DNA of 64,000 nucleotides, from the NCBI RefSeq assembly GCF_013167455.1, contig NZ_CP038328.1, one strand, 5' to 3'. Source of the stretch: Escherichia coli O157:H7. Lineage in GTDB: Bacteria; Pseudomonadota; Gammaproteobacteria; Enterobacterales; Enterobacteriaceae. Position numbers: made by a program. Positions within the stretch are counted from its first letter, which is position 1; each line of letters starts with the position of its first letter. Below are positions 39,001 to 42,000 of this stretch, piece by piece.

Positions 39001-42000
39001 CTTCCGCTACAGAAGGTTTACCCACGTTAGTGACTTTCACCGTGCGGGTGATCACTTCTTTCGCCGTCACGGCCTTACCGATACTGCTGACCCAGCCACG
39101 AAACACATCCACCGTGCCATTCGGAAAACGGATTTTATAGGCCCGGACATCGCCGCTTTCAAACCAGCCTATAAGCCCTTTCTGGCCTTCCTCTCCCGGT
39201 TTCCAGGCCAGCGTAAAACTGGTATCACCTGCAGATTTCTGCCCCTGCCCGGTCGCGGTCCAGTCCGCGTCTTCATCATCCAGGTAGTTATCATCGTAGG
39301 ATTCTGCCGTCATCTCGCCCGGCGTCAGATCCTTCACCTTAGCCAGTCGCTGCCAGTCATCGTCTGACAACGGGTTTGCATAGGCGTCACCCTGACCGTT
39401 ATAAACCCACAGGGTGGTACCGGCTCCTTTTACCGGCTCCAGGGGAATTCGTGTTTCGGCTTGACGTAGCCCGGACGTAACACGCGGGTTTCACCACCGC
39501 GATGACGCAGCACTTTTCCTTCAACAACCGGGGAGACATAGGCCGCCACCGGCGTTTTTCCGGTAATTTTGTCCAGCATCACCTCTTCGGTATGGAAATT
39601 CACCGTACGGCGGAAAAACAGCTCCAGAAACAGCGCACGAAATTTCACTTTTTGTTCGGTATAACCGAGTAACTGGCGGGTCGTAAACAATCCCATAAAT
39701 CAGTTCCTTTCATTCAGAAATCAGTCAGGCCACCGCGGTGGCCTGATAACGTGTTACGGCAGCGCCGCGTGACTCAGGGCACTGCCGGCAAAGGCATTTG
39801 CCTTTTTGTGTTCATCCACACTTTCAGGCCAGCGGATTGCCTCCGTCGCAAAGGTCCCCGACTTGTAATAGGTCAGTACCGTCTCTGTGCCTTCAAGCGG
39901 CAGTACCAGTATGCCAACTGCACTACCGGCTTTCTGTCCGTCCCAGACCACCAGTTTCCCGCTGGCTTCATCCAGCATCAGGGGCGTCAGTGCCGGTGTT
40001 GCCGAGGAAATCCCGCTGCTGCCTGTGGCGGTATGAGCCGGATCATTACCGGCAAAAATACGTACTTCCGCACGCTATTCAGTGATGTTTTTCGTTACCA
40101 TATTGTAAAAACCTCCTGTTGATGGTCAGCACTGACTTCATGGCATGGCCATGAGCATTTTCACGTCCGCATCACCGTCTGCTGACGTCTGTGGCACGCC
40201 ACCCTGTACCGCAGCCGGTGAATGGTTCGCCATGATGCGTTCAAACAGGGCGGTTGTGGATGCAGAGACCGGTTCTGCCTTACCTGATCCCGCAGCCAGC
40301 ACAGCCCGGGCGCTCTCCACAGTCATTCCCGGGCAGGCAGCCAGCTGTTCAGCCTGCGCCTCAGCCCCTTTTGCCTCATCCAGTGCCATGATCTGATCAC
40401 GGAGTGAGGGTCCGGCATCCGCCTGCGGTGAAGCAGCCAGGATCGGGCGGGCTTTTTCCACCGTCATCTCCGGCATCGCCGCCAGCGTTGCCGCCAGTTG
40501 TTCACGACCGTTCGCTTCTTCACACGCCATAATGCGATCGGCTTCACTCTGCGTGGATGCCACCGGCTGCTGCGGTGCCGCCGCGGCCAGAATCGCCCGG
40601 GCCTGTTCAACGCTCATGCCCTGTTGTCCTGCCAGCATCGTGGCAAGCTGTTCACGTCCTTTCGCTTCCTGGCATGTCAGGATCCCCATCACTCGCTGGT
40701 TCTCCTGCGCGGCGGCTTCCGTTGCAGTTAATTGCGGCATAGTGCCTCCTCTGACATTACTGTTCAGCGCCGTGGCCATCACACTGATGGCATCCGACGC
40801 ATTGACTAATTCATCCGCCAGCCCGGCATCAATGCCGGACTGACCTTCAAAAACGGCGGCCTCTGTTCCCGTGACGGCATCAACAGACAGACCGGTAAAC
40901 ATGGCCACTTTTTCGGCAAACATCCGGCGCGCCGCATCAATGCGCTGCTGCATGTTCTGGCGAACCTCTGCCGGTAAGGCTTCAAACTGATTGCCATCCA
41001 CCTTGTGCGCCCCTGAGTAAATCAGCGTGATATCCACACCGGCCTGCGCCAGATGACCGGCATAGCTGACATGGCTCATCATCACGCCAATGGAGCCGAT
41101 ACGGGATGTCTGGGTAACCAGCCGTCGGGAGCAGGCCGACGCCAGCAGCATGGCTGCAGAACAGGCCGTGTCATTGCACAGTGCCCAGACCGGCTTCTGC
41201 TGACGGAGGCGGTAAATCATGTCAGCGCAGTCAAACGCGCCGGCGGCCTGCCCGCCCGGACTGTCAATGTCCAGCAGTACGCCCCGCACCTGGCTATCCG
41301 CCATTGCCTGCTGAAGACAGGCGACAATGCCGTCATAGCCTGTCATTCCGGAAAATGGCCGCATACCCCCCAGCCGGTGCACCAGCGTGCCGGTCACCGG
41401 CAGTACAGCAATACCGTTCACCACCCGGTAAACACGGGCCGGTCGTTTACCTCCGGCCATGTACTCGTCCGTTTCAGCCAGCATTCCGGGAGCATCAAGC
41501 TGTACCTGCTGCTGTGGTACCGAAAGACTTGCTGCCCCCATCTCGCGCCCGAGCGCGCAAAAGAAAACCCGCGCATAGGCGGGCTCCAGAAGCAGCGGTT
41601 CATTGAATGCTGCGGCAATAATGTGTGAAAGATTACGTCTCACGGGGTGTTGTCTCCTCTTCCGGCCTGCGACTCTCCGCTATCTGCTGCTGATACGCCT
41701 GCGCTATCCACACCGGACGTGAGAGTCCGGCTTTTTGCCGCTCTGCAGATTCCCTGACCTGCTGGCGGAAAATGTCCTGATAATCCTCGCCCATCAGCGC
41801 CGGCTCTTTCTCATACGTGCTCAGTCCGGCCTCAATGCGCATCACCGATTCCTGAACCTCCTTGAGCCCGTCAATGGCCATTCTTCCGGCACCAATCCAC
41901 TCTGCCCGTGACCAGGCTGATCGCGCCTGATAAAAATCAAAACGCGCCCGTGGCGGACGGATAATCCCCCGAAGAAGTGCCTCTTCCAGCCAGTAGGAAA

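Follow-up and report, generated by a model that had tools for sequence, protein, structure and literature searches.

The closest described counterpart of the gene analyzed here is shp of phage 21. Its product, SHP, is a head decoration protein with a solved trimeric structure (PDB 1TD0/1TD3/1TD4), and the gene, flanked by those for the protease/scaffold and the major capsid protein, belongs to a phage whose complement of head and tail genes is complete. The decoration protein of phage lambda, gpD, belongs to the same family (PF02924). An amber allele of the lambda gene, Dam15, is a CAG-to-TAG change at codon 68 (PMC3745828). It is carried by a viable phage, in which it is conditionally lethal and is rescued by supE or supF.

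Two prophages of the O157:H7 strains Sakai and EDL933, Sp4 (CP-933M) and Sp14 (CP-933U), are the closest known counterparts of the element that carries our gene. The gene tccP2 is on Sp4/CP-933M, and tccP is on Sp14/CP-933U (PMC2884950). In both prophages the head and the major tail are defective, and nu1 of Sp4 is disrupted by ISEc8; Sp4 DNA can reportedly still be packaged with help from other prophages (PMC2669165).

The window, by which we mean the whole stretch of 64,000 nucleotides (nts) of Escherichia coli O157:H7 DNA that was analyzed, has in the same slot a gene for a 115-amino-acid (aa) protein that is 95.7% identical to SHP but only about 58% identical to lambda gpD. The codons flanking codon 9 are the same as those in phage 21. 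However, codon 9 is CAG in phage 21 and TAG in the window, and the window lacks E from codon 85 onward, as well as FI, FII, Z, and U. As in Dam15, a single-base change has turned a sense codon into TAG, but at codon 9 instead of codon 68 and in a prophage that could not assemble a capsid even with an intact D. The prophage is far from an otherwise complete phage: it has a deletion running from E to V, ISEc8 in nu1, and a split terminase gene. The TAG in the window is not a conditional-lethal amber of a viable phage.

The element shares with Sp4 its site at tRNA-Ser and hyaA, a tccP2 pseudogene, sodC, lom, and the ISEc8 insertion in nu1, and it shares with Sp4 and Sp14 the defects in head and major tail functions. 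The same block of late genes is found in an Sp14-like paralogue that carries tccP and espJ. Unlike EDL933, which has CAG in both the Sp4 and the Sp14 copy, four complete genomes share TAG with the window, which differs further in an 11-G tract in the terminase gene and in a patch of L/K. Nonsense mutations, IS insertions, and deletions build up in cryptic prophages once selection for the virion ends, and the lesions seen here do not differ in kind from such decay. What is additional is that two paralogous prophages of one genome share the lesion.

An amber codon interrupts a head decoration gene

The gene and its immediate upstream neighbors are as follows.

40075..40077, minus strand: TAG (amber), codon 9 of D, derived from an ancestral CAG (Gln) by a change at base 40077 (minus-strand T, plus-strand A)
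39754..40101, minus strand: interrupted head decoration gene of the lambda D family, phage 21 shp type, identified by translation, PF02924, and identity to phage 21 SHP
40112..40117, minus strand: AGGAGG ribosome-binding site of D, intact, 10 nt upstream of the ATG
40138..41643, minus strand: S49 protease/scaffold gene (lambda C/Nu3 equivalent), intact open reading frame (ORF), directly upstream of D
41633..43225, minus strand: portal gene (lambda B equivalent), intact ORF

The start codon, ATG, is at 40101..40099 and the natural stop at 39756..39754, which gives 115 codons plus the stop. The plus strand reads CTA at 40075..40077 and thus TAG on the minus strand. Translation gives MVTKNITE, the amber codon, and then, in the same frame, RAEVRIFAGNDPAHTATGSS...; as written, the gene encodes a peptide of eight residues. 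The residues on either side of codon 9 are those of SHP (MVTKTITEQRAEVRIF...). When codon 9 is read as Gln, the product matches the Pfam family HDPD (PF02924) over residues 6 to 110 with 85.3 bits (cutoff, 29.1 bits; E = 4e-24) and aligns with phage 21 SHP (PDB 1TD3/1TD0) from residue 1 to residue 115 (E = 6e-69). It also matches the structures of lambda gpD (PDB 1C5E and 7VII) at E values of about 1e-30. The gene order, portal, S49 protease/scaffold, D, and the remnant of E, is that of lambda and also of phage 21. Because of the HDPD match, the end-to-end alignment with SHP, the flanking residues, and the gene order, the TAG is the interruption of a real gene and not a chance stop. The HDPD-family frame is broken at codon 9, and the locus is a pseudogene of the gpD/SHP family.

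The lesion is a single C-to-T transition that changed CAG (Gln) to TAG. When the window was compared by blastn with the corresponding prophage of the O157:H7 strain TR01, base 40077 (C in TR01, T in the window) was the only difference in about 9.1 kb (45081..35971). Viable phage 21 also has CAG at codon 9, and its codons 6 to 8 and 10 to 16 are identical to those of the window. The initial annotation had described an in-frame amber at codon 9 of D with gpD homology continuing beyond it, and had proposed a CAG-to-TAG change as the likely cause. All of this holds, with the refinement that the homology is to the phage 21 shp allele.

We considered whether the gene might remain functional by restarting downstream of the stop. 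Between the stop and codon 42, the D frame contains neither ATG nor GTG nor TTG, and those nearby are all out of frame; the only in-frame candidates before codon 42 are ATT and CTG. The NCBI annotation pipeline, PGAP, starts the gene at the in-frame ATT at codon 15, and does so at all eight TAG loci in the complete genomes described below, giving an N-terminally shortened protein of 101 aa (WP_072141047.1). A weak GGAAG motif precedes the ATT by 5 nt. In crystal structures of the gpD family, the N-terminal 14 or so residues are flexible, which is consistent with a shortened decoration protein. However, initiation at ATT is very inefficient in E. coli, well under 1% of that at ATG. PGAP also rescues the neighboring gene V, which has lost its own start, with an ATT, so the choice appears to be a device driven by homology, and we rejected it as evidence of expression. 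In addition, even full-length D would find no cognate capsid, as E ends at codon 84. We regard functional restart as very unlikely.

The capsid gene was lost before the amber codon arose

The best match to the window was the corresponding prophage of strain 17B6-2, which was 99.94% identical over 49 kb. The annotation of the 17B6-2 prophage places it at tRNA-Ser and hyaA and lists sodC, lom, and a tccP2 pseudogene within it; the tRNA-Ser gene of the window is at 24418..24505. This match, together with the assignment of tccP2 to Sp4/CP-933M, identifies the element as an Sp4/CP-933M-type prophage located beside serT and hya and carrying tccP2. The ISEc8 insertion in nu1 and the defects in head and major tail genes are also those of Sp4. 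Because Sp4 DNA can reportedly be packaged with help from other prophages, its D may conceivably have had a role in trans before the mutation.

Other lesions in the late-gene block are as follows.

39430..39696, minus strand: remnant of the major capsid gene E (positions 1 to 80 of 329 of the Phage_cap_E profile)
39446..39455, no strand assigned: deletion junction, with roughly 2.5 kb missing relative to phage 21 (6604..9147)
38708..39448, minus strand: major tail tube gene V, without a start codon or ribosome-binding site of its own (positions 14 to 135 of 135 of Phage_TTP_12, plus Big_2)
45314..45568, minus strand: 3' remnant of nu1 (small terminase), truncated by ISEc8 (mapped from the annotation of the 17B6-2 locus)
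45606..47918, minus strand: ISEc8 (IS66 family) tnpA, tnpB, and transposase genes, in nu1 (512-aa ORF at 45606..47144 and annotation of relatives)
43412..45342, minus strand: large terminase gene (lambda A equivalent), in two frames, split at a poly-G tract (GpA_ATPase match across two ORFs)
45072..45082, minus strand: poly-G tract of 11 G's in the terminase gene, at which the frame switches

When aligned with phage 21, the window follows the phage from position 791 to 6603 and resumes at 9148. Lost with the deleted segment are E beyond codon 84, the whole of FI, FII, Z, and U, and, from V, the ribosome-binding site, the start codon, and the first residues, MPTPN. What is left of E encodes 84 residues that match the phage 21 protein exactly, after which come PWSR and a stop contributed by the junction; in relatives, PGAP labels this gene "missing C-terminus." Thus, the prophage has no cognate major capsid protein.

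The state of the large terminase gene is less clear. PGAP labels it "frameshifted" in relatives, and the tract is 10 G's long, also out of frame, in nine related loci, but many O157:H7 genomes, including EDL933, match an in-frame tract of 9 G's exactly. The length of the tract may be truly variable or may be a homopolymer sequencing error, at least in part. Because so many O157:H7 genomes have the in-frame tract, we rejected the terminase frameshift as a secure earlier lesion.

We dated the deletion by searching the complete genomes with a 61-mer that spans the junction. The full-length 61-mer was found in 299 complete genomes, mostly twice per genome, and about 1,215 other genomes matched its capsid half only; in these, E continues intact. 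Four of the 299 deletion-bearing genomes have TAG in D and the other 295 have CAG. Because the junction is present in 299 genomes and TAG in only four of these, the E-to-V deletion preceded TAG. For most of the history of the lineage, D was therefore an intact gene without a capsid protein to bind.

The initial annotation had called the amber a classical nonsense lesion. This is correct as to its chemistry, but the prophage was already without a capsid gene, and there was no phage phenotype left for the mutation to abolish. Likewise, the lesion in D was read correctly, but its context, the prior loss of the major capsid gene and of other head and tail genes, had been overlooked.

Distribution of TAG in two paralogous prophages

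To find other carriers, we searched with a 41-mer centered on the variant base; the search covered 5,426 complete E. coli genomes, and the segment is present in 1,863 of them. An exact match to the TAG version was found in four of the 1,863, all of them O157:H7 (strains ECP19-598, 17B6-2, G5295, and FRIK1989). In the comparison with D alleles of related prophages that the initial annotation had recommended, these four stand against 535 records from complete E. coli genomes that match with one or two mismatches. Both copies are CAG in EDL933 and in most other O157:H7 genomes.

The late-gene block occurs twice per O157:H7 genome, in the Sp4-like prophage and in the Sp14-like prophage with tccP and espJ. 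In the four TAG strains, all eight loci have TAG, and the collection of complete E. coli genomes contained no genome with one TAG and one CAG copy. The Sp4-like and Sp14-like copies of 17B6-2 are 100% identical over 10.7 kb (L003 19433..30127), a block that takes in the amber codon as well as the deletion junction and the poly-G tract of the terminase gene. That both prophages have TAG within this block suggests gene conversion. Most likely, TAG arose once and was then transferred to the other copy by homologous recombination or gene conversion.

Reads that are shorter than the 10.7-kb block do not reveal which copy they come from, and assembly polishing could therefore exaggerate the two-copy state of TAG.

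Taken together, the following course of events seems to us very probable. The 2.5-kb deletion first removed E, which encodes the lattice that D binds, and took FI, FII, Z, U, and the 5' end of V with it; nu1, too, had been disrupted by ISEc8 before TAG arose. With the capsid gene gone, D would have been an orphan under no selection when a spontaneous C-to-T transition struck codon 9 of shp/D in a cryptic lambdoid prophage of the Sp4/CP-933M type in O157:H7. Translation from the intact ribosome-binding site and ATG would then end after eight residues and yield no functional decoration protein. The TAG would have arisen in one prophage and been copied into its paralogue within the 10.7-kb identical block. 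The data show the base change, its rarity, the sequence of events, TAG in both copies, and no suppressor among the window tRNAs or at glnV and glnX of 17B6-2; from these we infer that the mutation was neutral, that no functional product is made, and that gene conversion did the copying.

An alternative is that loss of D was selected because an orphan decoration protein is costly or interferes with capsid assembly by co-resident helper or Stx phages, and that TAG reached both copies for this reason. In keeping with selection, all four genomes have TAG at both loci, mixed genomes are lacking, and the stop is at a very early, maximally inactivating position. However, the retention of CAG in 295 of the 299 deletion-bearing genomes gives no sign of a general pressure against D, and a single origin plus one gene conversion event accounts for the data. 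Of all the single-base substitutions that D could undergo, about 2.6% yield a stop codon, and one such event in an unselected gene across hundreds of O157 lineages is unremarkable. Selection against D is accordingly highly improbable, and we retain neutral decay of an orphan gene as the explanation.

Decoding, reality, and significance of the TAG allele

The amber codon might also be read through, by a suppressor tRNA or by programmed recoding, which would make expression of D conditional. The chemistry is that of the suppressible lambda allele Dam15, CAG68 to TAG (PMC3745828), and a suppressor inserting Gln would restore exactly the wild-type protein. We therefore looked for suppressors, as the initial annotation had advised. 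ARAGORN found no tRNA with a CTA anticodon in the 64-kb window; the tRNAs there are Ser-TGA, Arg-TCT, Arg-TCG, and one with the anticodon CAT. In the TAG strain 17B6-2, in which the glnV/glnX cluster was located by synteny, supE was not found; glnV and glnX are wild type, both with the anticodon CTG. The supE allele itself was present in 156 genomes, and the 60 among the matches listed all appeared to be K-12-like laboratory strains.

A recoded stop would be expected to be conserved in functional relatives, but these carry CAG. The TAG 41-mer was absent from 50,697 phage genomes; the search gave 20 matches, each at most 95% identical. The initial annotation had held that functional phages sharing the TAG would count against a lesion; none of these 20 phage records with the D segment has TAG, and among the 1,863 segment-bearing E. 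coli genomes only 4 do. With no CTA anticodon in the window, glnV and glnX wild type in 17B6-2, and CAG in functional relatives, we consider readthrough extremely unlikely.

The occurrence of the allele beyond the complete genomes was gauged from exact-sequence look-ups of its products in a much larger protein collection, counted by contig.

101-aa product of the NCBI pipeline, reflects TAG: about 150 contigs
74-aa ORF starting at Met42, consistent with TAG: about 104 contigs
Intact 115-aa protein, reflects CAG: at least 1,000 contigs

The four complete genomes and the TAG-type products on about 150 contigs establish TAG as a genuine allele that circulates in a minority of O157 strains and not a one-off error. 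That the true codon is CAG and TAG a sequencing or assembly error is scarcely credible: the window does have a likely homopolymer anomaly (11 G's at 45072..45082 versus 10 G's in nine related loci), which leaves its base calls open to some doubt, but a substitution is not a typical homopolymer error, the same T is present at both prophage copies, eight loci in all, in four independently assembled complete genomes, and both TAG-allele products are on public contigs.

The TAG in D is thus of a known kind, the expected decay of an orphan gene in a well-known defective prophage, and it has little import for phage biology. A bolder reading, that TAG was favored because loss of the orphan protein lessened interference with the capsids of co-resident lambdoid or helper phages, and that gene conversion drove it into both Sp4 and Sp14, is very improbable, even when its weaker version is included; if that version were true, TAG would be a clean natural tracer of the rate of gene conversion between paralogous prophages about 1.4 Mb apart in O157:H7.

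For users of genome databases, the finding matters in that the RefSeq/PGAP annotation hides the lesion: the locus appears as a 101-aa "head decoration protein" with no pseudogene flag, and V is treated in the same way. The TAG allele can serve to recognize a minority lineage of O157:H7 strains. Recombination between prophages is already known to reshuffle the virulence-carrying elements of O157:H7, and the new mutation shared by the Sp4-like and Sp14-like prophages provides a tidy case of concerted evolution between prophages.

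A block shared by two prophages and patches in the tail genes

In the O157:H7 strain 17B6-2, a 10.7-kb block that runs from the 3' end of nu1 to the gene that follows the one for the tape measure protein is 100% identical between the Sp4-like and the Sp14-like prophages of the same genome. Its positions are as follows.

19433..30127, Sp4-like locus of 17B6-2
14594..about 25290, Sp14-like locus of 17B6-2
about 34873..45568, window

The new TAG codon in the head decoration gene, D, is present in both prophage copies in four strains (ECP19-598, 17B6-2, G5295, and FRIK1989). This finding and the identity of the block suggest that gene conversion has occurred between the Sp4-like and Sp14-like prophages, which lie about 1.4 Mb apart.

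The window is otherwise nearly identical to the 17B6-2 locus, but 27 SNPs are clustered at 33828..34656, in the minor tail genes L and K. This 1-kb stretch of the window is a 99.8% match to L and K in a third lambdoid prophage of many O157:H7 genomes, and the cluster resembles a recombination patch. In the tape measure gene H, two protein alleles are distinguished by five SNPs that form a patch at 35569..35970. The window-like strains 17B6-2, ECP19-598, and G5295 have WP_000082466; WP_000082463 is found in TR01, which has CAG in D, and also in FRIK1989. Thus, the TAG codon is linked to two H alleles.

Deletion and possible rearrangement of late genes

With the viable phage 21 as the reference, the window has a 2.5-kb deletion (junction, 39446..39455) that joined codons 1 to 84 of the capsid gene, E, to the tail tube gene, V, and removed FI, FII, Z, and U.

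39430..39696, E remnant, the first 84 codons of the capsid gene
38708..39448, V, which lost its start codon and ribosome-binding site through the deletion

The E-V junction was found in 299 complete E. coli genomes, mostly in two prophages per genome.

The lysis cassette of the window is on the strand opposite to that of the antiterminator gene, Q, and the late operon (minus strand), whereas in the Sp14-like prophage the lysis genes and the late operon are collinear. An IS3-family transposase remnant and ISEc8 flank the lysis segment, an arrangement that suggests an IS-associated inversion.

about 49020..52030, plus strand, lysis cassette (holin, lysozyme, Rz-like lysis protein, and PerC-like regulator)
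55727..55976, phage-borne tRNA cluster downstream of Q (ARAGORN: Arg-TCT, Arg-TCG, and Met-CAT)
25108..26141, effector gene tccP2, a frameshifted pseudogene by homology to the 17B6-2 annotation

None of the three tRNAs that ARAGORN identified in this cluster is an amber suppressor. The CAT tRNA, called Met by ARAGORN, is annotated as tRNA-Ile by RefSeq in the identical 17B6-2 locus. The frameshifted state of tccP2 has likewise been reported for Sakai and EDL933.

Annotation of the terminase, D, and V genes

The large terminase gene contains a poly-G tract whose length decides whether the gene is annotated as intact.

45072..45082, poly-G tract, 11 G's in the window

The tract is out of frame both in the window and in nine related loci, which have 10 G's; many O157:H7 genomes, including EDL933, have an in-frame tract of 9 G's. 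The tract is either prone to slippage or the site of a recurrent sequencing error of the homopolymer type.

RefSeq/PGAP calls the amber-interrupted D and the start-less V intact proteins by using ATT start codons.

39754..40059, D, WP_072141047.1
38708..39448, V, WP_029208397.1

As neither gene is flagged as a pseudogene, surveys based on annotation miss both lesions, the amber codon in D and the loss of the V start.
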